A stretch of 46,325 bases of DNA from the NCBI GenBank assembly GCA_013815345.1, contig JACDGK010000007.1, forward strand, positions 1-46,325. Direction: 5' to 3'. Below are positions 10,156-39,893 of this stretch, in pieces. The stretch's first letter is position 1. Each line of letters begins with the position of its first letter. This DNA is from Patescibacteria group bacterium (GTDB taxonomy: Bacteria > Patescibacteriota > Minisyncoccia > Phycocordibacterales > Phycocordibacteraceae). Under the pieces are notes generated by a model. That model was not told where the DNA came from. It ran no database searches and saw only the letters and a program-made list of their open reading frames with translations. A program made the position numbers and the translations under genes.

Positions 10156-11151
10156 CTAAGAGAGTGAATGTACTTTGTATGATTCGGGTGCATCGTGCAG
10201 AAACTTTTCCAATGCTTCTCGTGTGAGAAGACCTTTTTGCGCGCCGATCTCCTGAACGACCGACATCGAATTAATAGGTCCCCACAAAAGCGCTTCGTGT
10301 ATAGGCCGTCCAAGGGCGAGTGCTGCCGTTACGCTTGAAGCAAACGCATCGCCTGCACCGGTACGCTCAAATGGTTCGCGAGTGTCGGGATACATCGGCA
10401 CAAAAAGCATCTGGGTGCCATCGTATGAATACGCTCCGTGTGTGCCGTCCGTAATAATAACGGTCGTAGGCCCGAGGGTGCGAAGTCCTGCAAGAAGCAG
10501 TTTGATGTCTTGATCGGCGGGAAGTTTTAAGATGCGTTCAGCTTCTTCTTTGTTACAAAAAAGTATTTCGCAGTGAGCATAGATTTCTTTTAATGCATCA
10601 GTGCCCATCTTCATTTGAAACGTGCCGGGTTGAAAGACAAATTTAGTTTCTGGATGTGTCGCAAGCCACGCGGCGAGTTCGTTGTGAAATGTCGCACTTT
10701 CACCTAGCGAGGAAAGATAGATATAGCGAGGGGGGATAAGATTTGTGGGAATTGAATAGGGAAACGGGTTTTGTTTAACAAGAATAGTGCGTTCATTTTC
10801 ATACCACAATACATAGTGTTGGTTCGACTCTGCTCCTTCGATCGGAGAAATAAAAGAAGTATCGACCGCATCTTTAGCAAGAGAAGTCAGACACTCGCGA
10901 CCGTTCAGATCATTACCGACCCACGCGAGGAGACCCGAGGTAAGGCCAAGACGTGCGGCACTGACCGCTGCGTTTGGACTATTTCCCACAGCATGAAGGG
11001 TCGTCGCTGAGTCAAACGGAATCTTGTCACCCCACCGCATAGTAATAGTGCAGTTTTCGTTCGCTGCGTCGCAGCGAACCTCGGCTTCTTTCAGTTTTAT
11101 AAAAATGTCAGTAGTGATGTCGCCGATAGCGAGAAAATCTAATTGTTCCAT
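10156..11151 (-). CDS. PfkB/ribokinase-family carbohydrate kinase
   Basis: GNSPNAAVSAARLG, VGND..G, CNKEEA, ITDG..GA, ERTGAGDAF. Confidence 0.92.
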   Translation of the reverse strand: MEQLDFLAIGDITTDIFIKLKEAEVRCDAANENCTITMRWGDKIPFDSATTLHAVGNSPNAAVSAARLGLTSGLLAWVGNDLNGRECLTSLAKDAVDTSFISPIEGAESNQHYVLWYENERTILVKQNPFPYSIPTNLIPPRYIYLSSLGESATFHNELAAWLATHPETKFVFQPGTFQMKMGTDALKEIYAHCEILFCNKEEAERILKLPADQDIKLLLAGLRTLGPTTVIITDGTHGAYSYDGTQMLFVPMYPDTREPFERTGAGDAFASSVTAALALGRPIHEALLWGPINSMSVVQEIGAQKGLLTREALEKFLHDAPESYKVHSLS

Positions 11152-11202
11152 ATAGAGTGAGTTTAGCATGTAGCCGAAAACCCTCGTGGTACTATTTTCT
11201 AT

Positions 11203-12204
11203 ATGGTTGATCTTTCGGAAGAGGTACAGAAGATTTTCGCGCCAGGGAAGGGACTGCTCGCGGCGGATGAAAGCGATAATTCAGCAGATACTAAGCGATT
11301 GGCACCCTATGGAATTGAGATCGGTCCCGAAATGCGACAGAAATTTCGCGACATGCTTCTCGCGGCGCCGGGTATCGAGGAATACCTGAGTGGCGTGATC
11401 CTCTATTCGGAGACCCTCGAACAATCTGCCAATGACGGCACGCCCTTTGCAGAACTTCTGAGAAAAAAGGGAATCATACCGGGTATAAAAGTAGACGAAG
11501 GGCTCGAGCCATTTCCTGATAGCGAGAAGGAAACGATCACCAAAGGCCTCATTGGTCTTCCAGAACGGTTAAACGGTTTTTATACGAAGTATCATACTAG
11601 TTTTACCAAATGGCGTGCTGCCATAACGATAGAAGGGGACCAGCTTCCCACCGCACAGGCGCTCGTCGAAAACGCAAAGCGTCTCGCGATGTATGCATTC
11701 GAAGCCCAGAATGCCGGTATGGTGCCAATCGTCGAGCCTGAAGTATTACTCGACGGAAATCACAGCCGGTTGCGCGCACGTGAGGTCATCACCAAAATGA
11801 TGCACGTCTTAGTAGGTGCACTCGAAGATCACTCGGTCGATCTTTCGGGAGTGATTATTAAAAGTTCCATGGCTCTTTCGGGAAAAGAAAGCGGCCGTAC
11901 TGACACGCCCGAGGAAGTTGCGGAAGATACGCTCGGCGCGTTGCAGGAAGCAGTGCCAAAAACTATCGGCGGCATTGTGTTTCTTTCTGGAGGGCAGATC
12001 CCTGATCAGGCAATAGATAATCTGCGTGCTATTTGTAAGGTGGCGCGGACGAAGCCCGCGCCCTGGCCGCTTACTTTTTCCTACGCACGCGCATTCCAGG
12101 AAGAAGCCCTCGCGATTTGGAAAGGCCTACCGGAAAACCTGCCGGCGGCTCGAGAAGCGATGCTCGCCCGTTTAAAAAGCGCGTCAGAGGCATTGTCAGG
12201 ATAG
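11203..12204 (+). CDS. Class I fructose-bisphosphate aldolase
   Basis: PGKGLLAADES, PGIKVDEG, FTKWRA, VPIVEPEVL, VFLSGGQ, LTFSYARA. Confidence 0.94.
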   Translation: MVDLSEEVQKIFAPGKGLLAADESDNSADTKRLAPYGIEIGPEMRQKFRDMLLAAPGIEEYLSGVILYSETLEQSANDGTPFAELLRKKGIIPGIKVDEGLEPFPDSEKETITKGLIGLPERLNGFYTKYHTSFTKWRAAITIEGDQLPTAQALVENAKRLAMYAFEAQNAGMVPIVEPEVLLDGNHSRLRAREVITKMMHVLVGALEDHSVDLSGVIIKSSMALSGKESGRTDTPEEVAEDTLGALQEAVPKTIGGIVFLSGGQIPDQAIDNLRAICKVARTKPAPWPLTFSYARAFQEEALAIWKGLPENLPAAREAMLARLKSASEALSG

Positions 12205-12301
12205 GAATTGGTCAAAGAGGTACTAAGGCGAAAATTATTGGAGACCCTTACCTACTGTGGACAATCCATTTATTTACCGGTGCGCAGAGTACTATAAAGA
12301 T

Positions 12302-14780: not shown

Positions 14781-15767
14781 ATGGATTCTACAACGATGCC
14801 TCCTCAGAGTGTAAGGAATCCTTCTTCACCGACACCTCATCGAACCGCAAAGCTCTTGCTCGCAGTGCTTGTTGTTCTTGTCGCGCTTGTGGCTCTGTGG
14901 TTCCTTCTTCGTAACTTCGTTCCCTCGTCTCAAACTCTTCTTCCGAAAGGAGATCATGTTTTAGTCGTTGCTGACCATCCGCCGCTCATGCCGGTGGTCT
15001 CTGTCGATTCGAATACCGGCTCGACGACCGTTTTCAAAATAGAGGGCCAAGGAACCGCTGTTGTCGTGGACGCCGCCTTTAGCGGAACGAGCACTCCCTA
15101 CTATCTCATCGCGAACCCGACATTCACTGCTTCAAATCTATACGCAGGAAAAAGCGACACGCCGAATGCGGGATTGACTCAGCTGACGTTCTCAAAAAAT
15201 CTAAAGTACGATCTTACCTATGACCCTTCTTCAGGATTTGCGGCATATGTGGAAATGGTCGGATCAAGTACCCCAAAAGTGCCTCATGTCTTTTTCTACT
15301 CATCACTCACTCAAAAAGAAATTGATCTTGGAGAAGGTAGCAATCCTACGCTTCTCACTGATGGATTCTATCTAGTCATGCGCCAAGGAGGCAGCATTGT
15401 CTCCGTAAATACATTTACCGGAAAGGTATATCCATCCCTTTCTATTGATCCTTCTGCGCCATTTGCTGTTGATACTCAAAACAAGGTAGTGGCATTATAT
15501 AATTCTGTTGCAGACTCAATCGATTATTTTTCAATTGCCTCTACGGTGAGTGCAAGCTACAAATCCTCGGTTCCGGTCACGGCTGCGCCAGCTGCGCTGG
15601 CCTTTGCGGAAGGAAAGTTGCTTATAATAAATGGCACAGCCGCGGCCTCACAGAGCAACTCTGACTTTACTGTCCAAGCAGTTGCTACTTCTCCACGCTC
15701 GCAAGTGTTACCAATACATCTCACACAATCCGTAAGTGGTTATAAACTTTCTATTCAACATGACTAA
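14781..15767 (+). CDS. Membrane-anchored hypothetical protein, possibly a beta-propeller
   Basis: N-terminal TM segment; the remainder is rich in short beta-strand-like segments. Confidence 0.6.
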   Translation: MDSTTMPPQSVRNPSSPTPHRTAKLLLAVLVVLVALVALWFLLRNFVPSSQTLLPKGDHVLVVADHPPLMPVVSVDSNTGSTTVFKIEGQGTAVVVDAAFSGTSTPYYLIANPTFTASNLYAGKSDTPNAGLTQLTFSKNLKYDLTYDPSSGFAAYVEMVGSSTPKVPHVFFYSSLTQKEIDLGEGSNPTLLTDGFYLVMRQGGSIVSVNTFTGKVYPSLSIDPSAPFAVDTQNKVVALYNSVADSIDYFSIASTVSASYKSSVPVTAAPAALAFAEGKLLIINGTAAASQSNSDFTVQAVATSPRSQVLPIHLTQSVSGYKLSIQHD

Positions 15768-18003
15768 ACTTCGTTCCTTCTTTCTTAACTTTTCCTTTTT
15801 CACGCTTGCGTTGGCTGCTGTGTTCCTTAGTCAGTCTGCCTCGCTCGCGTACGCTTCAGGCTCTACACTTTTTCAAGCCAATCCTGACCCTATTCAACCA
15901 GGCGGCACTTCCCGGTTAACCTGGCATAGCAGTCCTGTTAATTTGCCCTGTCATCAGACTTTTGATCCAGCGGATGACGGTAGTACGGCCCTTGTTACAT
16001 GGACGACGCCTCCTCTTTCTCAAACCACTACGTACTCAGTTACCTGCGGTAATCCTCCCGATACCACTACCGTCAATGTACCCGTTGTCGTATCGTATAC
16101 GGGTGTACTGGACGCGAGCTGTTATCCAGAACCAAGTACCGTGGGGGTTAATCAATCAGTTACGTGGCTTGCTGGAACTACGTACGGTGCTCAACCTTAC
16201 ACTTATACTTGGTCGGGGACCGATGGCTTCTCGGCCATTACTGCCTCAACAAGCGGCAGCTCCCTGCAGCGCTATTCTTACCCAGCACCTGGAGTAAAAT
16301 CAGCCTCTATTCATGTTATAGACTCTGACACAACCCAAAGCGATTCATCGATTGTATATACGACATCAACTCTTTGTAATGGACCTGTCGTACCAAACAC
16401 CGATAGATACTCGGACGTTGAGGACGGAGGTACTTTTTTAAATGCTCAGACAACGATTCGTGTGCTAGAAAACCAACTATTTAATAGTCCTACCTACGCT
16501 TCCTATTATAAGTATCCGGCAGACTTTACCACTAATCCGCAAAATTATTGTGTGCAGGGTGAAATACAAGAACAATATGACATACAGGATCCAAAATGCC
16601 GACAGTTTGGCGCCGGAACATGTCCCTTCGAGCTTGAAATAACACTGCATAACAATCCGAATACTACTCGGGCTCAGTTATATCCTGGTGATGAGAGATA
16701 TGGTTTCGCTCACGATTTGTATAGCACCTCCATCTATCAACCAGGCTCTAGTCAATCGAGTCCAAAAACGATCGATAGACTTTGCTCGGCTAAAGTAACG
16801 GTAACCGCACCAGACGTACCTATTGCTTCTCTCTCCGCAAATCCTATTTCTGTCCCTGTCGGCACTCCCTCTAATCTTACGTATGAATGTACTAATTCAA
16901 CCTCAGCTTCTATTACTCCCGCAACAGGTCTCGGCACTATTTCTCCGACCGGTTCTCATACCATACCAACGCCTAATCTAAATGACGGAACCACATACAC
17001 TCTAAAATGTATAAATGGAGCTGCGTCTGACACCGCGCAAGCCGATATTGACGTAACGCAAAACCTCCCTGATCTCACCGCTTCTGCCGCCACTATTTCA
17101 CCTTCTCCAGCCATTACAGGGGTGAGAGCGACCCTTTCGGGGAGGATAACGAATAGAGATACCCCAACCAGGGCAGTTTTCAAAGATTTCTTCCAGCAGG
17201 CTACGAGTCTTGATGCTGATGGAAATGGGGTGAATGTGAGTGATCTCTATCCGAGTGTTGATAATCCAGCGATGGACGCACCCGACACGAATGACATCAG
17301 CATCGGTCATATCTTTGACACTGCAGGTACCTACTATGTGCGCGTCTGCGCTGATAAGAGCGCAAGATCGGATACCGGTCTCATCGTTGAAAGCAACGAG
17401 GACAATAACTGCAGTACTAACTGGACACGGTTAACGGTAAACGACGACTCTAGTGCTCCCGGACTCTCTTGCAGCCCCTCACGAAGTACCGCAAAAATAG
17501 GCGACTCGATCACCTGGACACCGCTTCCTACTGGCGGCTTTACTCCAACTTCATACGCATGGTCAGATAGCAACGGTACGCCACAGACGGGCAACGGCTC
17601 TACATTCCAGAACTCATATAGCACCGATGGAAACTACTCAGTGCATCTGGTGGCTTCTCCTGGAGCCGTCACGGCCGACTGTTCGGTAGTTGCTATTGGA
17701 ACTGGCGCCAGCTGCAACGGCGGCAAGCCCCCAACCATTAAGGCAAACGGTCATAGCGTCTCCACACAAGTGCAATCAGGAAGCAAAGTACACATCAATT
17801 GGGACGCTACGGATACCTCAGGCACCTGTACCGTTAAAGGCCCAGGTCTTCCTGATACGAGTCTCTCGTGTAGCACCGTCCCGCCAACCGGCGCATCGAG
17901 CCCGGACCCTACTATCCTCACGCAAAGTACCTACACCATCACCTGTGGCAGTGGCAGTGCCTCAGTGACCGTGAACGTGGTGCCGAAGTTCCAGGAGTTT
18001 TAG
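15760..18003 (+). CDS. Secreted Cys/Thr-rich protein with PKD/Ig-like repeats and a CARDB-like domain
   Basis: Signal peptide; YTYTWSGTDG and SYAWSD PKD-like motifs; LPDLTA...YYVRVCAD...IVESNEDNNC CARDB signature. Confidence 0.75.
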   Translation: MTKLRSFFLNFSFFTLALAAVFLSQSASLAYASGSTLFQANPDPIQPGGTSRLTWHSSPVNLPCHQTFDPADDGSTALVTWTTPPLSQTTTYSVTCGNPPDTTTVNVPVVVSYTGVLDASCYPEPSTVGVNQSVTWLAGTTYGAQPYTYTWSGTDGFSAITASTSGSSLQRYSYPAPGVKSASIHVIDSDTTQSDSSIVYTTSTLCNGPVVPNTDRYSDVEDGGTFLNAQTTIRVLENQLFNSPTYASYYKYPADFTTNPQNYCVQGEIQEQYDIQDPKCRQFGAGTCPFELEITLHNNPNTTRAQLYPGDERYGFAHDLYSTSIYQPGSSQSSPKTIDRLCSAKVTVTAPDVPIASLSANPISVPVGTPSNLTYECTNSTSASITPATGLGTISPTGSHTIPTPNLNDGTTYTLKCINGAASDTAQADIDVTQNLPDLTASAATISPSPAITGVRATLSGRITNRDTPTRAVFKDFFQQATSLDADGNGVNVSDLYPSVDNPAMDAPDTNDISIGHIFDTAGTYYVRVCADKSARSDTGLIVESNEDNNCSTNWTRLTVNDDSSAPGLSCSPSRSTAKIGDSITWTPLPTGGFTPTSYAWSDSNGTPQTGNGSTFQNSYSTDGNYSVHLVASPGAVTADCSVVAIGTGASCNGGKPPTIKANGHSVSTQVQSGSKVHINWDATDTSGTCTVKGPGLPDTSLSCSTVPPTGASSPDPTILTQSTYTITCGSGSASVTVNVVPKFQEF

Positions 18004-27247: not shown

Positions 27248-29335
27248 ATGGCTAAAACGACGGAAAAAGACGTGAAAAACCGCGCCAGCAAAGCTGGCGC
27301 GGGCCAGTCCTATGATGCGTCCTCAATCACTGTCCTAGAAGGCCTAGAACCAGTCAGGAAGCGTCCTGGTATGTACATCGGGACCACCGGTCCCGATGGT
27401 CTTCACCACCTCGTATGGGAGGTTTTCGACAACTCACGGGATGAGGCTATGGGTGGTTTTGCGAACGACATCGAGATTGCACTTTTGCCGAATAATCGCG
27501 TACGCGTCGTCGACAATGGCCGCGGCATTCCCGTCGACAAGCATCCGCACACGAAAGTCTCAGCGCTTGAGACCATCATGACCACGCTGCATGCAGGAGG
27601 TAAATTTGGTGGGGAAGCATCGGGATACAAAGTGTCGGGTGGTCTACACGGAGTGGGTGTCTCTGTCGTGAACGCTCTTTCCACCTGGGCACGTGCCGAA
27701 GTTCACAAGGACGGAGGCCGATACGAACAAGAATACAAAATCGGTAAAGCGCAGGCACCGGTAAAAAAAGTCGGCACGTCGGAGCATATCGGCACGATTA
27801 TTTCATTTGAAGCTGACGCAAGTATTTTCGAAGAGGTAAAATATGACTGGGCTAAGATTGTGGCGCATGTGCGCCAGCAAGCGTATCTTGTGAAAGATAC
27901 GCGTATCAGTGTTATCGATGCACGGGATCTTGAAAAGGTGAGCGATCAAGGAGTGTTCTATCTCCGCGAGCTCAACCTCGAGGTGCCCTCAATGACGTTT
28001 TATTTCGAGGGTGGTCTCCGCTCACTCATCGCTTTTTATAATCAGCACCAAACGATTGCGCACAAGAATATATTTTATGTGGATCGTGAATTAGACAAGG
28101 TGCAAGTGGAGATCGCATTTCAGTATGTCGATGACCTCACGCCGCGCTTTTTGGCGTTTGCAAACAACATCTACAATGCCGAGGGCGGCACGCATGTTAC
28201 TGGCTTTAAGACAGCACTTACTCGCACGCTCAATACCTATGGACGCAATGCGGGCATTTTGAAAGAGAGCGAAGAAAATTTCACGGGAGATGACGCGCTC
28301 GAAGGCATCACCGCGGTCATCTCGGTGAAGATGCAGGAGATACAGTTTGAAGGACAAACCAAAGGCAAGCTTGGCTCGGTCGAAGCGCGTGGCGCTGTCG
28401 ATACCGTATTCAGTGAATCACTCGCTGCTTTTCTCGAAGAAAACCCCGACGACGCACGTGCAATCATAAACAAAGTGCTGCTCGCACTCAAGGCGCGCAA
28501 AGCGGCAAAAGCGGCAAAAGACTCGGTGCTTCGCAAGGGAGCTCTCGAAGGAATGACACTTCCCGGCAAGCTCGCTGACTGTCAGACAAAAGATGCGTCG
28601 GAATCCGAGCTTTTCATTGTGGAAGGGGACTCTGCTGGTGGTACTGCAAAGACAGGACGCGATCGTCGCACGCAGGCTATTCTGCCGCTGCGCGGCAAGA
28701 TTCTGAATATTGAACGTGCTCGTTTGGATAAGATGCTTGCCTCGGAGCAGATCAAGAATTTGGTTGTGGCGCTCGGCACCGCTATCGGCGACGTGTTCGA
28801 TCTGAACAAGCTTCGCTATCACAAGGTGATCATTGCGACCGATGCAGACGTAGACGGTGCCCACATTCGCACACTTCTTCTGACGCTTTTCTATCGCCAC
28901 TTCCGGGCCATCATTGATGGGGGATTTATCTATATCGCGCAACCACCGCTCTATAAAATCAAACGAGGAAAGGAAACTTTTTATTGTTATTCTGACGAAG
29001 AAAAATTCAAAATACTCGGTAAGGATGCGGAGGTACTAGAAGTAGCAGAAGAAGCATCGGATACGGAAGAAGAAAACGATGAGGAAGAAGAGAGCGATAC
29101 TAAAGCAAAGAAATCTCCAAAGATATCAATTCAACGATACAAAGGACTGGGTGAGATGAATGCGTCAGAACTCTGGGAGACGACGATGGATCCAAAAAAC
29201 CGCGTATTGAAACGAGTGACGGTTGATGACGCGGAAGCCGCCGATCGAATATTCGATATTTTGATGGGCACCGATGTCGCTTCCCGCAAGTCGTTTATCC
29301 AGTCGAACGCGAAGCTTGCGAACTTGGATCTGTAA
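27248..29335 (+). CDS. gyrB: DNA gyrase subunit B
   Basis: LEPVRKRPGMYIG, LHAGGKF, EGDSAGG, PLRGKILN, TDADVDG, QRYKGLGEM. Confidence 0.96.
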   Translation: MAKTTEKDVKNRASKAGAGQSYDASSITVLEGLEPVRKRPGMYIGTTGPDGLHHLVWEVFDNSRDEAMGGFANDIEIALLPNNRVRVVDNGRGIPVDKHPHTKVSALETIMTTLHAGGKFGGEASGYKVSGGLHGVGVSVVNALSTWARAEVHKDGGRYEQEYKIGKAQAPVKKVGTSEHIGTIISFEADASIFEEVKYDWAKIVAHVRQQAYLVKDTRISVIDARDLEKVSDQGVFYLRELNLEVPSMTFYFEGGLRSLIAFYNQHQTIAHKNIFYVDRELDKVQVEIAFQYVDDLTPRFLAFANNIYNAEGGTHVTGFKTALTRTLNTYGRNAGILKESEENFTGDDALEGITAVISVKMQEIQFEGQTKGKLGSVEARGAVDTVFSESLAAFLEENPDDARAIINKVLLALKARKAAKAAKDSVLRKGALEGMTLPGKLADCQTKDASESELFIVEGDSAGGTAKTGRDRRTQAILPLRGKILNIERARLDKMLASEQIKNLVVALGTAIGDVFDLNKLRYHKVIIATDADVDGAHIRTLLLTLFYRHFRAIIDGGFIYIAQPPLYKIKRGKETFYCYSDEEKFKILGKDAEVLEVAEEASDTEEENDEEEESDTKAKKSPKISIQRYKGLGEMNASELWETTMDPKNRVLKRVTVDDAEAADRIFDILMGTDVASRKSFIQSNAKLANLDL

Positions 29336-29340
29336 GACGA

Positions 29341-29408
29341 AACAAACAGAGCAAAAGAAAAACCCAGCGGGAGTAGTCCCGCTGGGTTTTTCTTTTGCTC
29401 TGTTTGTT
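29341..29408. terminator. Bidirectional terminator with a perfect 32-bp stem
   Basis: 29341-29372 pairs with 29377-29408 around a GTAG loop; lies between convergent genes. Confidence 0.9.
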
Positions 29409-30213
29409 AGCTCGCTACTACGCTCACTACACCAACGGCGTTATTGTTTGCCTCATTAGTTTCCTGGATAAGGTTGTTGGGATCAACGAGGATATTGATA
29501 GGCTCGTTGCTTCCGGGAGGTACTTGGTCGAAACCAAGGGTGAAAATAACACCATCACCAGGATTCAGAGATGCCTCGATGGGGGAGTTATAGGTGTAGC
29601 CGTTCTGGGTTGGGATGCGAGCGCCAAAATTCCAGGGGCCGGAGGCATTCGTGCCTGCATTAGAGATCGTAAAACGAACGGCGGCACGTGCGCCAACCGG
29701 AATAACTGGTGCAGCGACAAAAGAATCATTGGAGGCATTTGCGAGATAGCCGACCGAAATAATCGTGGTCGCTAGATCAGGAAGACCGTAGGGAGCACGC
29801 GTGCCACGTCCACCATTATTCGAAGGATAGCTAGGAGGGTAATTAGAAGGATAGTTCGTACGAGTCGGATACGTAGCAGGAGGGGAGTATGTTTGTATGT
29901 TTGTCGCCTGCGGTATGGTGACGGAGTAAGGCGTTGTTACCGTCGATGTCGCGTTATAGCCAAAAGGCACCGTTGTGCTTGATACGACCGCAAGCTGTGC
30001 CGGATATTCAGAACCACCTGGATGTGAGAGGTAGGCGCTTGCCGAAGAAAGCTTCGATACAGCATCAGACACATAGCGGGCGCTATAAATAGCAAGTGCG
30101 ATGCCGATAAAGAGAAGAATGATAAAACCAAGAATGGTAACCGCAGTCAAAGCCGGATTACGAGGCTTTTCAGTCTTTTTTGTCTCGGTCGTATGAATTG
30201 TTGTTGATTCCAT
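29407..30213 (-). CDS. Membrane-anchored protein with Thr/Pro/Tyr-rich stalk and C-terminal CARDB domain
   Basis: TM segment ILGFIILLFIGIALAIY; LPDL...ISNAG...VDPNNLIQETNEANN. Confidence 0.8.
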   Translation of the reverse strand: MESTTIHTTETKKTEKPRNPALTAVTILGFIILLFIGIALAIYSARYVSDAVSKLSSASAYLSHPGGSEYPAQLAVVSSTTVPFGYNATSTVTTPYSVTIPQATNIQTYSPPATYPTRTNYPSNYPPSYPSNNGGRGTRAPYGLPDLATTIISVGYLANASNDSFVAAPVIPVGARAAVRFTISNAGTNASGPWNFGARIPTQNGYTYNSPIEASLNPGDGVIFTLGFDQVPPGSNEPINILVDPNNLIQETNEANNNAVGVVSVVAS

Positions 30214-30326: not shown

Positions 30327-31052
30327 ATGGATACAAAGCAAGGGACATCTGCTCCGCAAGGAACACTACAGAACGTCTATGCCCGGAAGTGGACCTTCTT
30401 GGTGGCGTTTTTGGTGATTCTCTTCGTAGTGGTACGCGTGTTCACGGTGATCGGATTCGTCCCGAATCCGATCACGACAACCGTCGCGAGCAATGCCGGC
30501 GACACTATCATGACGCCCGTGACGCTCACGAATTCACCGCTTATCGCGAATGCGTCTGCAAATGGTGGAAATGTGGCGGCAACGAATGGATCGCTCAATA
30601 TGAACGGCGAGCTACCGACAAAAGTGGTAATTTCGAGTATTGGTGTTTCGGCACAGATAGCAAATCCTGCCACGACGAACATCGAAGCACTCGATCAATC
30701 TCTTTTGTCTGGTGCTGCACGTTATCCGACGTCAGCTACGCTTGACCAGCAGGGAACCGTTGTTCTCTTTGGGCATTCAAGCTACTTGCCAGTGGTCATC
30801 AACCGTTCGTTCAAAACGTTTGACGGTATCCAGAATTTGAAAGAAGGTGATCAGATCACCGTCTATAGCACTACACATGTATTTACCTACGCGGTAACGG
30901 GAGTGCAGCATGAGAGCGCGACTTTGGACGCGATCCCGCTTACGAGCACTGGTCATACGTTGGTGCTGGCGACCTGCAATTCGTTCGGACAGAAAACCGA
31001 TCGCTTTGTGGTCACCGCAACGCTTGTTGGAAGCTCTGCGCTTGGAAGCTAG
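30327..31052 (+). CDS. Sortase
   Basis: N-terminal TM segment; catalytic His (LFGHSS), Cys (LVLATC, cf. TLxTC) and Arg (TDRFVV); F..I..L..GD.I.V motif. Confidence 0.9.
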   Translation: MDTKQGTSAPQGTLQNVYARKWTFLVAFLVILFVVVRVFTVIGFVPNPITTTVASNAGDTIMTPVTLTNSPLIANASANGGNVAATNGSLNMNGELPTKVVISSIGVSAQIANPATTNIEALDQSLLSGAARYPTSATLDQQGTVVLFGHSSYLPVVINRSFKTFDGIQNLKEGDQITVYSTTHVFTYAVTGVQHESATLDAIPLTSTGHTLVLATCNSFGQKTDRFVVTATLVGSSALGS

Positions 31053-31165
31053 TTCTTCGGAACTGGTTTTCTCGGTGTAGAGCTCACTGCAAACGCAGAG
31101 GGGGCAAAAGTTCTTGCCGCGCTCGTTCCATTCCGGGATGAGGCGGCTCCATTGGAGGAAACCAC

Positions 31166-32113
31166 ATGAGGAAACTCATCGGCCTACTCATGGCGCCGCT
31201 CGCGGCGCTCATGATGCTCGCTTCTTTCTCGCCGGCTCACGCCGCCGAGGGAGACAGCTTCATGCGGGACGTGCCAAATCCGCATGCGCTCTCGGGGATC
31301 ATTAAGGAGAGTCTTCTGCTCGACCCAAGCGGAAAGAGCCTGCTCTCTCCGTCGAAGTGTCATCAGGCTTCGGCGCGTTCGTGCGCCAACGCCTGGGATT
31401 ACCTGGTTATGTTGTGGGAATCGGACCCGGAGGCGAAAGCCGACGGACGTCTGACGACCGTCGATCAACTCCCCGGCTTTCTCGACTCACTCGTCGAGGC
31501 GAAGATGGGCGACGAAGAGTACAACATGGCCTGTCTGGCCCCCATAGGGTCAGACGTCTTCAATCCCGTCTTCAACTGCATTCAAAGGCGGTTCGAAGCG
31601 AACGAACCGGGCTGGCAAGACCCCGTGTCCGGCCGGATCGTGCTGGCGCGTAACTGCACCAACCCGGTCGGTCAGACGACGGAGCTTATTGTCACGGTTC
31701 AGCCGTGCGTCACCGTCGGTGTTCCGGAAATTCCGCCGGGAACCGTCGTTCTCCACTACGAAGTGGTGAGCGGCGGGAAGATCCCACACTCGGTGCGCTG
31801 CCCCGACATCAACCCCTGCGATGATTGCAGGTGGGGGGCCGTGGAGGAAGATTTCACCTCCAAGACCGGGCTGGTGATCAAGGACCGTGAGGAACACAAG
31901 ATCATCAGTCCCAAACCAGGTTTCGGGGAGAAGATCAAGCTCTCCCACGACATCCTCAAGGAGGGCGGCGCCGTCATCTTCTGCGCCGATGTCATGGGAA
32001 GCGATGGCAAAATCCATCGCTCCGGATGGCGGGCCATGTTCTTCCGTCCGGGAACAACCGGGGGCCCTGCGTTCCAGGTTCCCTCGAAGTTTACCTTTCG
32101 GGATCCTCTCTAA
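31166..32113 (+). CDS. Secreted Cys-rich hypothetical protein
   Basis: Sec signal ending AHA-A; 10 Cys; GGAGG SD upstream; visibly GC-rich third codon positions. Confidence 0.7.
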   Translation: MRKLIGLLMAPLAALMMLASFSPAHAAEGDSFMRDVPNPHALSGIIKESLLLDPSGKSLLSPSKCHQASARSCANAWDYLVMLWESDPEAKADGRLTTVDQLPGFLDSLVEAKMGDEEYNMACLAPIGSDVFNPVFNCIQRRFEANEPGWQDPVSGRIVLARNCTNPVGQTTELIVTVQPCVTVGVPEIPPGTVVLHYEVVSGGKIPHSVRCPDINPCDDCRWGAVEEDFTSKTGLVIKDREEHKIISPKPGFGEKIKLSHDILKEGGAVIFCADVMGSDGKIHRSGWRAMFFRPGTTGGPAFQVPSKFTFRDPL

Positions 32114-32129
32114 CCTCGAGGTGAGTCTA

Positions 32130-32172
32130 GTGTGGCGGGCATCTATGCGCCCGCCACACACTCTCCTCTTTT
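32130..32172 (+). terminator. Rho-independent terminator
   Basis: GTGTGGCGGGC / GCCCGCCACAC stem followed by a pyrimidine/T run. Confidence 0.6.
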
Positions 32173-32249
32173 TATACGCCGTTATAACGGCATGGAATCA
32201 TTATTTAACAAAGAAGCAAATTATTATCGAAGAAGTTACTCAGAAAATT

Positions 32250-34589
32250 ATGAAAACAATCAATCAAATCGCAAATCTCAAAAACCGACCGATCGCGCTC
32301 GGTGTGATTACCGTATTCGCGGTAATCCTTCTAGGTGCATCAATTGCGTTTGCAGCGGGATTTGCAAACCCTCTCAAAACCTTTGCCGATGATTTTGGCG
32401 GAGATGTACCCTGTGATTGTGGAGGAATCCCCATCGACATACCACCAATAGATATCGGGGGTGATATTCCTTGTGACTGTGGAGGCCTTCCTCCTATCGA
32501 TGTACCACCTATCGATGTGGGCGGCGATGTACCCTGTGATTGTGGCAATCTTCCTCCTGAAGTTCCACCAGTTGATGTACCTCCCGTAGATGTACCTCCA
32601 GTGATTCCACCAGTTATTCCCCCATTTGCGCAGTGTATCTCGCTCACGGGAACACCTCAGAATATTCAGCCAGGAGCAGCGGTTACGATTACCTGGCGCA
32701 CGCTCAATGCCACATCCATCTATATTACTGGTATTGGTTTTGTGACGCCCGTGCCTGGCGGCTCGGCTGTCGTACATCCGATTCACGACACTACGTATGT
32801 TGCGACCGTGAGGGGTGTGGGGGGTACGGTGAATTGTCAGACAGTAGTGCACGTCACAACGCCACCACCACCAGTATTGCCACAGTGTGTTTCGCTCACC
32901 GGATCGCCAGCAAATATAAAATCAGGAGAGGCGTTTACGCTTACCTGGAAAACGCTCCGTGCGAACTCAATTTACATTAATAACGGTATTGGTTTCGTAA
33001 CGCCTGTTGCAGGAGGCTCCATTGTCGAGCATCCTACCCATGACACTACCTATATCGCGACGGTGAAAAACGCCGCAGGAAGTGTGAATTGTCAGACATC
33101 AGTGCACATTACGACGCCACCGCCACCGGTATTGCCACAGTGTGTTTCGCTTACGGGAACACCACACACCATTAGGTCAGGTGACGCGTTTACCATCGCA
33201 TGGAAAACGCTTAATGCGACTTCAATCACTCTTAACAACGGTATCGGGCGCGTAACGCCGGTCGCGGCGGGCTCAATTGTTGAGCATCCGACCCACGACA
33301 CTACGTATATCGCGACCGTTGCTAATGCCGCGGGCAGTGTAAATTGTCAGACGTCAGTCGTGGTCACTACTACACCACCACCTCCCGTACCTGAATGTAT
33401 TCAGCTTACGGCAAGTGCCACTGTTATAAATCCAGGGGACGCCGTCACACTTAGCTGGGTAACATCGCACGCGAATTCACTCTTTATCGATAACGGCATC
33501 GGCTCGGTTAGTCCTGTTGCAAATGGTTCGATCGTGGTGCATCCAAACGGAAACACGACCTACCACGCAACGGTGCCTGGTGCGGCGATCAATCCGAATT
33601 GTAGCGTGAGTGTTGTTATCCAAACACCACAAGTATGTACCTATAACTGTGGCGGAGGAGGCGGATATTTCCCACCCCCACCCCCACCATATATTCCTCC
33701 GGCACCACCGACTGCAGCGTACATCTCACTTTCTCAGATCCCGTATACCGGTCTTGATCTGGGGCCTGTAGGCACTGTCGTGTACTGGGTCGCCCTCATC
33801 GTCTTCTGTGCCTCAGCAGCCTACCTCACCTTGTTTAATCTCGTGCCATTCCTGTATCGCCGTTTGCATCTCTTTGGTGCTGGCGTGTCGCAGGTAATCA
33901 ATCAGCCAAGTGCTGTTATGCCGCTTGCGTCATACGCTGCTGCAGCAGCTCCGGTACTCACTGCATCTGCGTATCCTGTGGAGTCACCACTCTCTCCGAG
34001 CTACACAGTACCTGCCCCGGTGAAAAGTTACTCTTCGGCGCAAGGATTCAGTTCGTTTGCGCAGGGAAGTGCCCTCACGATCGATGATATTGTAAAAGGT
34101 CTCGCCCGTGAAGCAGGGGTCTCACCCGACGCTCCTGCGGTTGCGGCCTACACGGCTGCGGCGAACGCTGAAGCTGCACGGAATACTCAGGTGGTCATGT
34201 CAGAAGCGCGTCCTGCCACTACTTCTGCTGCATCTCCGCAGCAATCTACAAACGCTCCTATATCTACGGACGTTCGTGATTTCATCGCATCACTTTTACA
34301 AGGAGATCGCGATGTAGTGTTCGGCTCGATCCGTCAGATCGTTCGTGAAGGAGGTAATGCGGAAACGTTCCTCACCCAGGTTGTGTGTGGACTTGATGAC
34401 GCGTATCGCGCTCGTCTTGACGGCACGAAAGTAAACGCAGAGATCGCCACGCTCACCGAAAAATGTGCAACGCCATTCCTCGAGCGTCTTACGGCTGCTC
34501 TTACGAATGCCGTTGACTCGAGCTATTCACCGGGCATTTCCGGCGCAAAGCTTGCGGTCACCCGTGCGCTCGGAATTATCGAAGGTTAA
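32250..34589 (+). CDS. Surface protein: signal peptide, CDC repeats, four Ig-like repeats, internal IPYTG sorting-like signal, TM helix and long cytoplasmic domain
   Basis: 779 aa from ATG 32250; GGD[VI]PCDCG x3; four 84-85-aa repeats; IPYTG at 33738-33752, then a hydrophobic helix, then RR. Confidence 0.8.
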   Translation: MKTINQIANLKNRPIALGVITVFAVILLGASIAFAAGFANPLKTFADDFGGDVPCDCGGIPIDIPPIDIGGDIPCDCGGLPPIDVPPIDVGGDVPCDCGNLPPEVPPVDVPPVDVPPVIPPVIPPFAQCISLTGTPQNIQPGAAVTITWRTLNATSIYITGIGFVTPVPGGSAVVHPIHDTTYVATVRGVGGTVNCQTVVHVTTPPPPVLPQCVSLTGSPANIKSGEAFTLTWKTLRANSIYINNGIGFVTPVAGGSIVEHPTHDTTYIATVKNAAGSVNCQTSVHITTPPPPVLPQCVSLTGTPHTIRSGDAFTIAWKTLNATSITLNNGIGRVTPVAAGSIVEHPTHDTTYIATVANAAGSVNCQTSVVVTTTPPPPVPECIQLTASATVINPGDAVTLSWVTSHANSLFIDNGIGSVSPVANGSIVVHPNGNTTYHATVPGAAINPNCSVSVVIQTPQVCTYNCGGGGGYFPPPPPPYIPPAPPTAAYISLSQIPYTGLDLGPVGTVVYWVALIVFCASAAYLTLFNLVPFLYRRLHLFGAGVSQVINQPSAVMPLASYAAAAAPVLTASAYPVESPLSPSYTVPAPVKSYSSAQGFSSFAQGSALTIDDIVKGLAREAGVSPDAPAVAAYTAAANAEAARNTQVVMSEARPATTSAASPQQSTNAPISTDVRDFIASLLQGDRDVVFGSIRQIVREGGNAETFLTQVVCGLDDAYRARLDGTKVNAEIATLTEKCATPFLERLTAALTNAVDSSYSPGISGAKLAVTRALGIIEG
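32631..33620 (+). repeat. Four intragenic repeats of 252-255 bp (Ig-like, two Cys each)
   Basis: Units start at 32631, 32883, 33138 and 33393: [QE]C..LT....W.T..A.S....GIG.V.PV..GS.V.HP...TTY.ATV......NC. Confidence 0.85.
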
Positions 34590-34667: not shown

Positions 34668-36428
34668 TTACGCTCGTTCTCTAATCTCGGTTTGGATCAG
34701 TCCAATGAAATTTGAAATTGCCACCGGCTCGAGTTTTCCTTTGTCACGACTCTCGACGGAAACGGTCTGTTCTTCGATTTCCTTATCGCCGACCACGAGC
34801 ACATAGGGAATTTTCTCGGTCTTTGCGTTGCGGATCTTTTTGCCCATTGATTCGTTTGCGTCATCAATATCCGCACGTATGTTTGCGGCGCGAAGCGCCG
34901 TGAGAATTTCAGCACCATACGCTACCTGTTTTTCGGATACCGGCACAATACGTACTTGTACCGGCGCGAGCCAGGTAGGAAAGGCACCTGCGTAGTGCTC
35001 GATAAGAAATCCAAATATGCGTTCAAGACTTCCAATAGTGGAGCGATGGATCATGACCGGACGTTTCTTTTTGCCGTCGCTATCAATGTATTCGATGTCG
35101 AATTTCTGTGGCAGGAGGAAGTCTATCTGCGCAGTGAAAAGGGTGTCTTCTTTACCGTTTACATTTTGGGCCTGCACATCGAGTTTTGGCCCGTAAAATG
35201 CGGCTTCATCAAGGGCTTCGATATACGAAAATCCAAGTTCATCAAGCGCCTCTTTCATCATTGCTTCGGCAGTATTCCACAATTCATCATCGGGGTAGTA
35301 TTTCTCTTTATTGCTTGGGTCACGTTTTGAAAACCGATACGTCACGATATCGAGAAGTCCAAGACCTTTCATTCCTTCCACGATCATGCGGCATACATTT
35401 TTAAATTCTTCTTTGAGCCCCTCAGGCGTTACGAAAAGGTGACCGTCCGTGAGTTGGAATTTGCGCACGCGAATCATACCCATTAATTCGCCCGATTTCT
35501 CATACCGGTTGTAGTCGCAAATCTCTGCGTAGCGCACTGGAAGCTCGCGATAGCTCCACGGCTTTCGTTGATACATGCGGATGTGGTGTGGACACGCCAT
35601 AGGGCGTAGATAAAATTTGTCGCCATCCATGTCGATCGGGGCATACATATTGTTGGCGTAGTGCTCGAGATGGCCGGAGGTACGATACAGTTCTTCACCC
35701 CCGAGATAGGGAGTGGATACATGTTCGTACCCATATTTGCGTTCAAGCTCACGCGTAAAGTTTTCAAGTTCAAATTTCACCGCCGTGCCTTTTGGCGTCC
35801 ACATTGGAAGCCCACGTCCAACTTTTTCATCGATAATAAAAAGATCGAGGTCGCGGCCGAGTTTCTTGTGGTCGCGCTTCTCTGCTTCTTCTCGTTGGGC
35901 TTTATAAGCCTCAAGTTTAGCTTTTGTATCAAACGCTAGGCCGTATATTCTTGTGAGCTGTGCGTTTTTTTCATCGCCCCGCCAGTACGCGCCCGCAATG
36001 CGGTCAAGGGTGAAGGAATCTGCCGGAATGTCATGCGCAGGTCGTTCAGAGTGCCCCCCGCGACAGAGATCACTAAAATCACCAGCGGTGTAAAGCGTCA
36101 TTGACTCTCCTTTAGTAACGATCTCATCAATGAGCTCGAGCTTATAAGGGTTTCCAGCGAATCGGGCTCTCGCATCTTTTTCAGAAATCTCCACGCCACT
36201 CATTTCAGTCCATGTCGGAAGAAGTTCGCGCATGGTTTCTTCGAGGGACGCGAGATCATCTTCGCCGGGAGCTTTTTCGCTTTCTAATCCTCCTGCGAAA
36301 TCGAAGTCGTAATAGAAGCCGTTATCAATGGCTGGCCCGATAGTCGGCTTCGCATTCGGATATCGTTCTTGAACCGCTGCAGCGAGCAAATGGGCGAGCG
36401 TGTGGCGTTTTTCCGGCAGGGAAGTCAT
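34668..36428 (-). CDS. thrS: Threonyl-tRNA synthetase (no N-terminal TGS domain)
   Basis: RHTLAHLLA, DLCRGGH, GAYWRG, RDHKKLG, PMACPHH, AFYGPKLD, IHRS..GS.ER. Confidence 0.96.
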   Translation of the reverse strand: MTSLPEKRHTLAHLLAAAVQERYPNAKPTIGPAIDNGFYYDFDFAGGLESEKAPGEDDLASLEETMRELLPTWTEMSGVEISEKDARARFAGNPYKLELIDEIVTKGESMTLYTAGDFSDLCRGGHSERPAHDIPADSFTLDRIAGAYWRGDEKNAQLTRIYGLAFDTKAKLEAYKAQREEAEKRDHKKLGRDLDLFIIDEKVGRGLPMWTPKGTAVKFELENFTRELERKYGYEHVSTPYLGGEELYRTSGHLEHYANNMYAPIDMDGDKFYLRPMACPHHIRMYQRKPWSYRELPVRYAEICDYNRYEKSGELMGMIRVRKFQLTDGHLFVTPEGLKEEFKNVCRMIVEGMKGLGLLDIVTYRFSKRDPSNKEKYYPDDELWNTAEAMMKEALDELGFSYIEALDEAAFYGPKLDVQAQNVNGKEDTLFTAQIDFLLPQKFDIEYIDSDGKKKRPVMIHRSTIGSLERIFGFLIEHYAGAFPTWLAPVQVRIVPVSEKQVAYGAEILTALRAANIRADIDDANESMGKKIRNAKTEKIPYVLVVGDKEIEEQTVSVESRDKGKLEPVAISNFIGLIQTEIRERA

Positions 36429-36605: not shown

Positions 36606-39600
36606 CTACAACGCTTTGAGATTTTCGACGGAGAAACTAGTTTCACCGTTGCGCAGCGATACGGCTCCTTTTATCAGAACGCAGGTGCCGGGAGTGATGA
36701 GTGCCGAATGTTCTTTGAAGAGTTTCGGAAAGATGACGGCTTCAATTGAATCGGTCTTGTCTTCGAAGCGGACAAATGCCATGCGGTCGCCGCCTTTTGT
36801 GAGGACGGTGCGTACCTCAGCGACGAGTACGGGAAGTATGAGTGACTGGCCAGCTTGCGGTTCTGCGTTGATAGCACCGATCGTCGTATACGCCTTTTCA
36901 AGCTTGGCGGTGTGGGCATCGAGAGGATGACCGGACACATAAATACCCAGAAGATCTTTTTCCCATTCGAGTTTATCGGAAAGGGAGACCGGGTACTCAA
37001 GAGTGGGAAGGACAAGCGTCGGCGCTTGCGCCGACGCACCGAAAAGAGAATCCTGCGGATGTTCAGTGGTCACATCGCGATGAAAAGCCAGTAAAAGTTC
37101 AATGTTCGCGAGCAAGCTTGCGCGACTTACGTCACCAGCGAGACCATCAAGCGCTCCACACTTTATCAATGATTCGAGCGCTTTCTTATTGAGATTTCGC
37201 GAACCAATGCGGCAAAGAAAATCAGAAAGCGAAGTGAAGGGCCCTGTAGCTTTACGCTCCGCAATGATGGCTTCTGAAATGCCTTCGCCGAAATTTTTGA
37301 TCGTAGTTAACCCAAACCGAATAGTATCCTTATCCTCGCCTGCTACAGTAAACTCTGCATCTGACTCATTAACATCAGGCGGTAGCACAGGAATTCCCAT
37401 ACGTTCACATTCACCGACAAAAGTAGCGATTTGCGCTGTATCTCCCGCATCAGCCGTGAGAAGTGCAGCCATATATTCGACTGGATAGTTCGCCTTCATG
37501 TAAGCCGTCTGGTACGCGACTTTGCCATAACTTGCCGCGTGCGCTTTGCCGAAGCCGTATGCGGCAAAGGGTTCAATAAGTTTCCAAAGGTCTTCTGCTT
37601 TTTGCGGCGAGAGATCACTGTGTTCAGCAAATCCTTCAATAAGTTTTACTTTCTGCGCGCGCATCTCTTTCGGAATCTTTTTACCCATCGCTTTGCGAAG
37701 CGAGTCCGCATCCTTCCATGAATAACCTGCAAGGTGCACCGCGATAAGTAGCACATCATCTTGATAGGTCACGACGCCATACGACTGATCAAGGATGGAT
37801 TCAAGTTTTGGATGAAGATATCGTACGAGCTTCGGATTTCTTTTACGCTCAATGTATGAAGGAATTGATTCCATCGGACCTGGACGATACAGTGCAACCA
37901 TCGCGTTAATATCGAAAATCGACGTAGGTCGAAGCTCTTTCAGATAGCGCGTCATCCCGGAACCGTTCAATTGGAAGATTCCTTCAGTCTCACCACGCGC
38001 AAGCATGCTGTAGGTATTTGCATCGTCGATTGGAATGTTCTCAATATCGATCCAACGATCGCGCGAAAGCCGCACCCGTTCGACTGCATCCCCAAGGATG
38101 GCGAGGTTTTTAATACCGAGAAAATCGAATTTAAGAAGCCCGACGCCGCCGTATTCATCGGTAATCGAGTACATGTCATATTGCGTGATGATCCCACCGC
38201 CCTTGGGATCAAACTGAAGGGGTGCCCAGTCAGTGAGCGGAGAAGGAGCAATGACAACACCAGCGGCATGTACGCCTACGTGCCGCACACAGCCTTCGAT
38301 GCGTTTGGCAAGATCAAGTATTTCACGCACGTCATCATCTTCGTCGTACAGCGTTTTTAACTCTTTTTCAAGCTCCATCGCGCGATCAATGGTCATCGGG
38401 AACCCTTGCGAGCCGATGGGTATAAGTTTCGCGATACGATCACCGACACCATATGAATGGCCGAGTGCGCGACAGACATCGCGTACCGCCGCTCGAGCCA
38501 TCATCGTGCCAAACGTACCGATCTGCGCTACGCGATCCTCGCCGTATTTGCGTTTGGCGTACGCGATCATCTCACCGCGGCGATTATCGGCAAAGTCCAT
38601 GTCGATATCCGGCGCTTTCGGACGTTCTGGGTTTAGGAAGCGTTCAAAAGGAAGTTTATAGAATATGGGATCGACGTTCGTAATGCCGGTGAGGTACGAA
38701 ACCAGGGACCCCGCGGCGGAGCCGCGGGTCGTCGTGAGAATGCCTTCTTGTTTTGCGAAGGTAAGAAGGTCAGACACCACGAGGAAATATTTTTCGTACC
38801 CTTTTCCGTTAATGATGCGCAGCTCGTACTCAATGCGTTCTTCAATTTCCGGCTCGAGCTTTATACCGCGCATAGAAAGACCGGCGTACGCTTTATCCCG
38901 GAGCATTTGGGCGTGCGTTTTGCCTTCTTCCTGGGGAAATTCCGGAAACACCCAGGTGCCCAGCTCGAAAGAGAGATTACAGCGGTCGGCAATTTCTTTT
39001 GAACGATCAACCGCGTCAAGTGTTTCTTTAAAAAACTTAAGTGCTTCTTTCTCGCTGATAAAAGAGAAGTCCTCTTCTTCATTACGACCACGCTGACCGC
39101 CATGTTGAATTCGTCGCAATACTTCACAGGCTCCTTGATCACTGGATTTTAGATAATACACATCATGTTGCGCGACAAACGGTACGCCGGATTCCTTGGA
39201 GAGTTCAATGAGCTTCTTCATTTTTTCTGTATGACCTGCCACTTTCGGATGATGCGTGATTTCGAGAAAGACATTTTCTTTTCCGAAAATACTTACGTAT
39301 TCCGCAAGGGCAGCGGCAGCACCTCGGGCGTCACCTGCAGCGAGCATGAGCGGTACTTCGCCCGCAAAAGAGGGAATGAGCGCAATAAGTCCTTCGTGAT
39401 ATTCACGCAAGAGTTCTTTATCGACGCGTGGTTTTTCGAAAAATCCTTCCGTGTGAGATTTCGTGACGAGAGAAAGAAGATTTTTATACCCTTGGTTATT
39501 TTCAGCAAGGAGCACCAGACGGGTGCGTTTGCCAGCCTCACTGCGTTCTTTGTCAAAACGGGAGCGGGCAGCAACATACATATCGACGCCGATAATCGGT

Positions 39601-39782
39601 TTTATTCCCTCAGCGGTCGCCGCCTTATAAAACTCGATGGCACCGTGCAAATTGCCCGAATCAGTAAGAGCGACCGCTCCCATACCGTTTTTTTTAGCGG
39701 CCTCTACCAACTCATCAACTTTCGGGAGTGCCTCGAGAAAAGAGTAATGGCTATGCGCATGGAGATGAATGAACCGAGACAT
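36606..39782 (-). CDS. dnaE: DNA polymerase III alpha subunit
   Basis: PHP HLHAHSHYS, RGSAAGSLV, PDIDMDF, HAAGVVI, KFDFLG, OB-fold C-terminus. ATG 39782 follows TGCTATTCT. Confidence 0.96.
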   Translation of the reverse strand: MSRFIHLHAHSHYSFLEALPKVDELVEAAKKNGMGAVALTDSGNLHGAIEFYKAATAEGIKPIIGVDMYVAARSRFDKERSEAGKRTRLVLLAENNQGYKNLLSLVTKSHTEGFFEKPRVDKELLREYHEGLIALIPSFAGEVPLMLAAGDARGAAAALAEYVSIFGKENVFLEITHHPKVAGHTEKMKKLIELSKESGVPFVAQHDVYYLKSSDQGACEVLRRIQHGGQRGRNEEEDFSFISEKEALKFFKETLDAVDRSKEIADRCNLSFELGTWVFPEFPQEEGKTHAQMLRDKAYAGLSMRGIKLEPEIEERIEYELRIINGKGYEKYFLVVSDLLTFAKQEGILTTTRGSAAGSLVSYLTGITNVDPIFYKLPFERFLNPERPKAPDIDMDFADNRRGEMIAYAKRKYGEDRVAQIGTFGTMMARAAVRDVCRALGHSYGVGDRIAKLIPIGSQGFPMTIDRAMELEKELKTLYDEDDDVREILDLAKRIEGCVRHVGVHAAGVVIAPSPLTDWAPLQFDPKGGGIITQYDMYSITDEYGGVGLLKFDFLGIKNLAILGDAVERVRLSRDRWIDIENIPIDDANTYSMLARGETEGIFQLNGSGMTRYLKELRPTSIFDINAMVALYRPGPMESIPSYIERKRNPKLVRYLHPKLESILDQSYGVVTYQDDVLLIAVHLAGYSWKDADSLRKAMGKKIPKEMRAQKVKLIEGFAEHSDLSPQKAEDLWKLIEPFAAYGFGKAHAASYGKVAYQTAYMKANYPVEYMAALLTADAGDTAQIATFVGECERMGIPVLPPDVNESDAEFTVAGEDKDTIRFGLTTIKNFGEGISEAIIAERKATGPFTSLSDFLCRIGSRNLNKKALESLIKCGALDGLAGDVSRASLLANIELLLAFHRDVTTEHPQDSLFGASAQAPTLVLPTLEYPVSLSDKLEWEKDLLGIYVSGHPLDAHTAKLEKAYTTIGAINAEPQAGQSLILPVLVAEVRTVLTKGGDRMAFVRFEDKTDSIEAVIFPKLFKEHSALITPGTCVLIKGAVSLRNGETSFSVENLKAL

Positions 39783-39893
39783 ATATACAGAATAGCAAAT
39801 TATAGCCAAATCTCCGGTCGTTGACATTTATGCCGGTCAGGAATGTAATACGAGCAGACGTTCATTGGCCAGTTTCGCAAAGAGGCTTCTCAA

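Follow-up and report, generated by a model that had tools for sequence, protein, structure and literature searches.

The 46,325-bp contig JACDGK010000007.1 (assembly GCA_013815345.1), analysed here over its whole length and referred to as the window, stems from an uncultured ultra-small soil bacterium of the Kaiserbacteria-type clade of Paceibacteria. On its plus strand, at 30327-34589, we read three genes in a row that encode a sortase, a secreted Cys-rich protein and a 779-aa type I membrane protein, the last of which carries a sortase-type motif, PYTG, in its interior; names attached to homologues of this protein include Candidatus Kaiserbacteria and Paceibacterota, and the sequencing run that contains the contig is labelled soil metagenome. 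The system is real, clade-wide and unannotated, and an internal sorting signal combined with a conserved helix and a folded tail is new among sortase substrates. We consider it probable that the genes constitute a dedicated sortase-substrate cassette, with the sortase cutting at PYTG and a functional helix-tail fragment staying behind.

The 779-aa protein is exported and crosses the membrane once, with an immunoglobulin (Ig)-like ectodomain outside and, by predicted topology, a tail of ~240 residues in the cytoplasm (Table 1). It possesses two hallmarks of a sorting signal, namely an xPxTG pentapeptide (IPYTG, residues 497-501) and a hydrophobic helix followed by positive charges (RR). LPxTG signals of this make-up normally end the protein within a few residues and are regarded as C-terminal and disposable, whereas here 241 residues follow the RR, and relatives extend for 200-460 residues beyond the motif. 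An earlier note, drawn from the sequence alone, had listed this succession of IPYTG, hydrophobic helix, RR and 241 further residues in an exported protein and had proposed a short LTIDDIVKGLARE helix after a linker as well as a helical-looking terminal domain; the signal and what follows it are all present, and every coordinate given for the locus proved correct when re-read from the sequence. The structural suggestions were borne out by an AlphaFold model of residues 472-779 (95 homologues; mean predicted local distance difference test score, pLDDT, 77.6), in which a long membrane helix is followed by a disordered Ala/Pro linker, short helices at a conserved element that takes in LTIDDIVKGLARE (residues 609-621, 34074-34112), a second linker and a six-helix bundle with a pLDDT of 94-98. 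The juxtamembrane stretch across the candidate cleavage site reads AYISLSQIPYTGLDLGP. Searches of the full-length protein against Pfam and NCBIfam returned no family at E up to 1. Its ectodomain contains an internal repeat of 55% identity, and the ectodomains of homologues vary, with a dockerin in 2/69 and weak Ig-like matches in Pfam.

A search with residues 480-779, hereafter the module, yielded 189 matches at E up to 0.001. All 119 relatives among the matches listed (query coverage 95-100%) bear xPxTG at 258-323 residues from the C-terminus, and their N-terminal parts vary widely in length. The earlier note had proposed searching with the tail and with the motif-helix segment separately. 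Circularity was avoided with a tail-only query (residues 539-779) from which motif and helix were left out; it recovered the same motif-bearing architecture, with 269 matches at E up to 0.001 that always lay at the C-terminus of the matched protein. Among those listed, 99 were at least 330 aa long: 93 had xPYTG within the set distance window, four had a variant there, and the remaining two had PYTG just outside it. Shorter tail-only matches mostly begin within the helix or the tail and look like truncated gene calls.

In a profile alignment of 236 family members, xPxTG was kept in 176/176 proteins whose motif columns were aligned and which had at least 100 residues upstream, so the loss of the motif in homologues, an outcome that the earlier note had named as telling against a sorting signal, did not materialise. 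Together with 15 members having shorter upstream parts, this gave 191 motifs: IPYTG (133), VPYTG (32), LPYTG (10), MPYTG (9), TPYTG (2) and one occurrence each of IPQTG, VPHTG, FPSTG, VPVTG and IPHTG. Where an ectodomain is present, the aligned members never depart from P, T and G and rarely from Y, substitutions being confined to positions 1 and 3, which is the pattern expected of a sortase site. The consensus juxtamembrane tag reads L-S-Q-[IVLM]-P-Y-T-G, and the conservation profile indicated the adjoining membrane helix to be unusually conserved in sequence. The motif columns of four further long members were unaligned: two have VPYTG further upstream, one (P0237) is without a motif and one (P0153) is a chimera. 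The latter, 376 aa long, joins the N-terminus of a UvrD-like helicase (GPGTGKTH) to the end of the helix and the tail; it probably arose as a chimera in assembly or is what remains of a rearrangement.

A group of short relatives (~305-325 aa) shows what happens to the motif when little is left outside the membrane. In four of them (P0183, P0198, P0203 and P0206; 304-317 aa), an N-terminal anchor is followed almost directly by the conserved helix and tail, with next to nothing left of an ectodomain. In place of xPxTG these four now read ISYAG, VATLG, ATSTG or FPYSG, the only real cases of motif decay. P0179 seems to have lost the motif by deletion, and P0180, likewise without an ectodomain, retains it. 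Given that helix and tail persist while the motif decays, the motif seems to be needed only in the presence of an ectodomain. At the level of sequence, this pattern is consistent with a motif that would serve in processing the ectodomain and a tail that would have a function of its own.

As the earlier note had stated, the sortase gene lies two genes upstream on the same strand, exactly one gene (31166-32113) separating it from that of the 779-aa protein, and its suggestion that linkage be examined across homologous loci can now be answered. We compared 80 of the 205 GTDB species loci that encode the module. Fifty-three of these extend more than 600 bases upstream and, with the window, make up 54 assessable sources; the other 27 end at a contig edge, at most 568 bases upstream. 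A sortase of one dedicated subfamily is found upstream on the same strand in 54/54 sources, its end lying 0.8-3.3 kb from the start of the module open reading frame (ORF). Genome-wide co-occurrence was assessed in a sample of 401 genomes spread evenly over the phylum. While some sortase is encoded by 303 of them, the profile of this subfamily scored 372, 191 and 173 bits in genomes G001, G148 and G342, the three that encode the module, the next best score anywhere being 85.5 bits; the subfamily is thus present in 3/3 module genomes and in 0/398 others. A class-level sample of 201 genomes brought up the same three module genomes. In G001, G004, G005, G148 and G342 it is the sole sortase detected. 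A census of potential substrates, run on a relative's 687,765-bp contig (G001; 1,677 ORFs of at least 80 aa) rather than on the organism of the window, identified the module protein as the only non-polytopic ORF in which xPxTG is followed by a helix; the other match, APLTG, lies inside a 12-helix polytopic protein.

The sortase itself consists of an N-terminal transmembrane anchor and a catalytic domain that scores 69 bits against Pfam PF04203 (cut-off 26.6; E 4.2e-19). The catalytic residues, reported as intact in the earlier note, are indeed in place as His150, Cys217 and Arg226 and are invariant in 56/56 aligned subfamily members; positions in the anchor (K21, W22, F24, L25 and F28) are conserved as well. 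None of the NCBIfam sortase class models (A-F / GN) reaches its cut-off, the best being class E (37.9 bits vs 160), followed by class D (34.1 vs 165) and TIGR01076 (30 vs 39.35). The enzyme thus represents a lineage-specific subfamily of its own. Prediction of a complex between sortase residues 85-241 and a 40-residue segment containing the motif gave a score of 0.01, which counts neither for nor against binding. In another genome of the clade, G002, a second, unrelated sortase (L118 9160-9744, minus strand) is encoded beside a 604-aa protein (10391-12205, minus strand). This protein ends in a textbook terminal signal of LPSTG, a hydrophobic stretch and KKRTA, and its sortase is not picked up by the hidden Markov model of the PYTG-associated subfamily at E up to 1e-3. 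The existence of a separate sortase with a terminal LPSTG protein in the same clade marks the PYTG system as a distinct, specialised one.

The six-helix bundle at the end of the tail resembles a domain known from DNA replication. Aligned with VIA-align to 48,161 chains, its ranks 1-8 were all clamp-loader subunits, followed by MgsA C-terminal domains; the best match was domain III of Escherichia coli DnaX (8gj0_B; Z 14.1, root-mean-square deviation 2.9, 108 aligned residues). Further matches comprised Bacillus subtilis delta (Z 12.6), RFC subunits (Z 10.5-10.6), E. coli delta-prime and delta, and T4 gp44 (Z 7.9). A Z near 13 is a value that helical bundles may reach through a common arrangement of helices; here the family is consistent throughout and other lines of evidence agree. 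Foldseek likewise placed the same domain III on top (best E 3.6e-3), and the language-model neighbours of the tail were PF12169 clusters (score 0.87), which we take as a lead only. As judged from the model, the terminal bundle has the clamp-loader collar fold.

Sequence comparisons point the same way, with weaker signals. The Pfam model of clamp-loader domain III, PF12169, did not match the 779-aa protein at E up to 1, and it appeared below threshold in the tails of 2/69 relatives (E 0.05 and 0.08). An hhalign comparison of the tail domain with the clade's own DnaX gave an alignment of 49 columns where domain III begins (probability 48%, P 1.8e-4). The module profile also weakly matched domain III of two DnaX proteins from other genomes (E 0.003 and 0.006), and Pfam confirmed that these are DnaX. 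A match of the same profile to ArgRS in genome G519 was taken as chance, and against the sequences of solved structures the profile gave 0 matches at E up to 10. Taken together, the bundle is probably a distant homologue of clamp-loader domain III that falls outside PF12169 by the curated threshold. In clamp loaders, domain III forms the collar of DnaX, delta and RFC, which holds the subunits together. The last 108 residues of the tail superpose on it; however, the AAA+ ATPase and lid that precede it in clamp loaders are absent, and disordered linkers and a membrane helix take their place, leaving the domain tethered to the membrane. A normal DnaX is encoded elsewhere in genomes with the module. 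In the tail, a clamp-loader collar domain has apparently been recruited outside replication. Since the collar joins clamp-loader subunits, self-association is the most economical role to propose for the tail. Distant members (L120 9273-11723; L121 9843-16619; P0231, P0237 and P0239) have a further conserved element on the cytoplasmic side, ...Y(A/P)(T/R)EDGW(I/M/L)xLN..., between helix and terminal bundle, which is absent from the 779-aa protein of the window.

The gene between sortase and target encodes a 315-aa protein with a signal peptide, an alpha/beta domain and an FN3/Ig-like sandwich (model pLDDT 80.6). It matched 0 families in Pfam and NCBIfam; Foldseek and VIA-align returned generic FN3/Ig matches only (Z up to 5.7), and an Atlas search gave nothing usable (best score 0.79). 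BLAST clustering of intervening ORFs placed this family between sortase and target in 53/54 loci, up from the 34/54 recovered by a first jackhmmer run.

How does this arrangement relate to known sortase systems? In the canonical one, a housekeeping class A or E sortase acts on LPXTG signals, as exemplified by SrtA and protein A of Staphylococcus aureus. An export signal, an xPxTG motif, a helix ~5-8 residues later, basic residues and a membrane-anchored His/Cys/Arg sortase are common to both. In contrast, the PYTG signal is internal, with 241 residues after the charges, its helix is conserved down to the sequence, Tyr is fixed at position 3, and its sortase stays below every class cut-off and is dedicated to one neighbouring protein. 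In this last respect it is reminiscent of dedicated pairs, such as SrtB with IsdC (NPQTN signal) or the 'marine' class GN sortase TIGR03784 with its single target, in which a specialised sortase likewise sits beside a single substrate with a private motif and strict co-occurrence. The targets of SrtB and TIGR03784, unlike the PYTG protein, end right after the signal, and we know of no dedicated-pair target for which a folded cytoplasmic domain after the signal has been described. A looser parallel is ectodomain shedding with regulated intramembrane proteolysis, as in Notch or bacterial anti-sigma factors. In those cases, cleavage of a single-pass protein takes place right at the outside of the membrane, and what remains is a stub that retains a cytoplasmic domain; the likeness is one of analogy only, as no intramembrane protease is linked to the PYTG locus, the orientation differs, and the enzyme is a transpeptidase. 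Closest in concept is C-peptide signalling in Streptococcus gordonii, in which the membrane remnant of sortase A cleavage is reported to be sensed by a histidine kinase (as cited in PMC11502775). Both systems would have in common a post-cleavage membrane fragment with a function of its own, in our case a putative one. Whereas the S. gordonii remnant, as presented there, is an ordinary anchor of ~30 residues, that of the PYTG protein would run to ~280 residues and include, besides a folded domain, a conserved helix and a conserved linear motif, and no kinase partner like the one reported there is evident at the locus.

As to the candidate phyla radiation (CPR), Méheust 2019 places a sortase family in more than half of its members (PMC6744442), and passages of two other papers mention sortases in passing only (PMC5220378, PMC13278184). 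The earlier note did not recognise the arrangement as described, and in agreement with this we found no published description of the PYTG system in the literature on CPR, Patescibacteria or Parcubacteria sortases, on LPXTG signals or on internal sorting signals, in a search that did not cover supplementary tables, so that those of Méheust 2019 (fam000526 and neighbours) may list the family. What sets the system apart is that the tag is internal across the whole clade, and that no part of the protein is better conserved than the one to be left behind, which contains a folded cytoplasmic domain. If cleavage is true, sortases could make functional membrane-anchored cytoplasmic fragments, extending the C-peptide idea to a full domain, and the cassette would provide a first handle on surface-protein organisation in Kaiserbacteria-type CPR bacteria, the envelopes of which are poorly understood.

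In the mechanism that we favour, the sortase would cut between Thr and Gly of IPYTG and hand over the ectodomain to an amine acceptor, in the cell wall or elsewhere, while a fragment of ~280 residues (GLDLGP, helix and tail) would stay anchored in the membrane. Strong conservation of helix and tail, together with the collar-like domain at the end of the latter, suggests that this fragment has a function of its own and is not a discarded anchor; most likely, its collar domain would self-associate and thereby cluster or position precursor and sortase, or it might report processing. The conserved helix and the conserved sortase anchor may point to helix-helix recognition between the two. A more far-reaching version, which we regard as a long shot, would have the cut start a transmembrane relay: removal of the ectodomain, on wall attachment or host contact, would alter the helix-tail fragment, whose collar-like domain would form rings or dock on the clamp-loader collar, so that surface display would be coupled to replication by a Notch-like signalling or tethering device.

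Cleavage between T and G and any role in signalling or localisation are things we infer, and several observations weigh against a dedicated, cleaving pair. The neighbourhood as a whole is syntenic, with thrS in 50, CARDB in 49, dnaE in 45 and gyrB in 44 of the 53 loci; the order gyrB...thrS-dnaE is kept lineage-wide, even in two distant members, which makes gyrB and thrS equally 'linked'. Because synteny extends to these housekeeping neighbours, the 54 loci are not independent events and adjacency counts overstate the independent support, and we therefore dropped the 54/54 figure as strong independent evidence. Moreover, the family is narrow (3/401 phylum and the same 3/201 class genomes), the co-occurrence of sortase and module rests on these three positive genomes and possibly on a single origin, and the conservation of helix and tail goes well beyond what a discarded anchor would call for. 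Two sets of loci count against pure inheritance of gene order. L073 and L077 are without gyrB, thrS and dnaE, yet sortase, middle gene, module and CARDB gene stay together there; and in the distant members G148 and G342 (module E 1.7e-26 and 2.3e-23) the sortase abuts its target directly, with no middle gene between them, and the targets have retained the motif, as DQIPYTGFEAG and SQVPYTGFEAG.

As the main rival, we consider a protein that is never cleaved. PYTG would then be a structural juxtamembrane or docking motif in a permanent bitopic protein whose variable outer part is coupled to an oligomerising domain in the cytoplasm; the sortase would act elsewhere or be a partner only. Strong conservation of helix and tail fits this account as well, adjacency could be inherited synteny, and the ectodomain-less relatives, which keep helix and tail while the motif decays, argue for a tail function independent of the motif. 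However, the conserved positions are precisely those of a sortase site (P, T and G invariant, with helix and basic residues next), the motif outlasts the tail in the most distant members, the 688-kb contig of a single-sortase genome offers no other substrate, and the sortase subfamily occurs only where the module does; on balance, we hold an uncleaved protein to be unlikely, if by no means far-fetched. A different possibility departs from the preferred explanation in the acceptor only: PYTG would be cut and the ectodomain joined to a protein, either at a lysine or the N-terminus of the middle protein or to another copy of the ectodomain, giving a fibre or coat. A secreted Cys-rich FN3/Ig-like protein encoded between sortase and target in nearly all loci, and a CARDB surface protein accompanying the cassette, would suit such a scheme, but the two distant members have no middle gene in between, the generic matches of its product (best Z 5.7) show no prominent pilin-like fold and no acceptor motif was identified, which makes transfer to a protein quite improbable in our estimate. 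Finally, the earlier note had considered that the tail might be a separate gene fused to the rest by a sequence error, which would have arisen in assembly or sequencing. The obvious chimera among the members, P0153 with its helicase N-terminus, illustrates that such joins exist in the data. Yet the same fusion recurs in one open frame in ~180 independent full-length proteins from many assemblies and across 80 GTDB species loci, so that the tail belongs to one protein with the rest throughout these relatives; we rejected this explanation, whose chance of being right is negligible. Together with motif conservation and sortase linkage, this means that each of the refuting outcomes listed in the earlier note that computation could address turned out in the note's favour.

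Table 1. Coordinates of the cassette, its flanking genes and the segments of the 779-aa protein in the window.
Feature	Position	Strand	Basis or remark
gyrB	27248-29335		
CARDB-domain protein, N-terminal membrane anchor	29407-30213	-	Pfam CARDB E 7.1e-07; start codon inferred
Sortase, 241 aa	30327-31052	+	Pfam PF04203
Secreted Cys-rich protein, 315 aa	31166-32113	+	signal peptide; without Pfam/NCBIfam family
PYTG-module protein, 779 aa	32250-34589	+	start at the ATG that agrees with homologue N-termini
Signal peptide or signal anchor, residues 1-35	32250-32354	+	hydropathy scan; homologue N-termini agree
Variable ectodomain: three GGD[VI]PCDCG repeats (Pro-rich stalk), four ~90-aa Cys-bracketed Ig-like repeats, Gly/Pro stalk	32355-33662	+	sequence
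LSQIPYTG, residues 494-501	33729-33752	+	IPYTG at residues 497-501, 33738-33752
Transmembrane helix, residues 507-536 (YW..L..W..AAYL.LF...PF)	33768-33857	+	conservation profile; model pLDDT >90
RR, residues 537-538, positive charges on the cytoplasmic side	33858-33863	+	sequence
Cytoplasmic element GF(R/S)SFAxG..LTIDDIVKGL(S/A)RE	34044-34112	+	near-invariant columns; short helices in model
Six-helix C-terminal bundle, residues 672-779	34263-34586	+	pLDDT 94-98
thrS	34668-36428	-	
dnaE	36606-39827	-	

The cassette lies among housekeeping genes, namely folB, gyrB, thrS and dnaE. Between gyrB and the sortase gene, and divergent from the latter, lies the gene for a CARDB-domain protein that has a homologue in 49/53 related loci and accompanies the cassette in L073 and L077 despite the absence of gyrB, thrS and dnaE there; it is a probable fourth member of the set. 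Elsewhere in the window, three plus-strand genes encode further surface-related proteins: one that exceeds 1,133 aa and combines Peptidase_G2 with Ig-like domains (39-3440), a type IV pilin-like protein (N_methyl; 5083-5655), and a 755-aa PKD/CARDB protein (15736-18003) whose Ig-like repeat is 31% identical to the ectodomain repeat of the 779-aa protein. No sortase-type signal was found in any of these three. The replication genes gyrB and dnaE bracket the cassette in 44-45/53 related loci, while its tail resembles a clamp-loader domain, possibly by coincidence.

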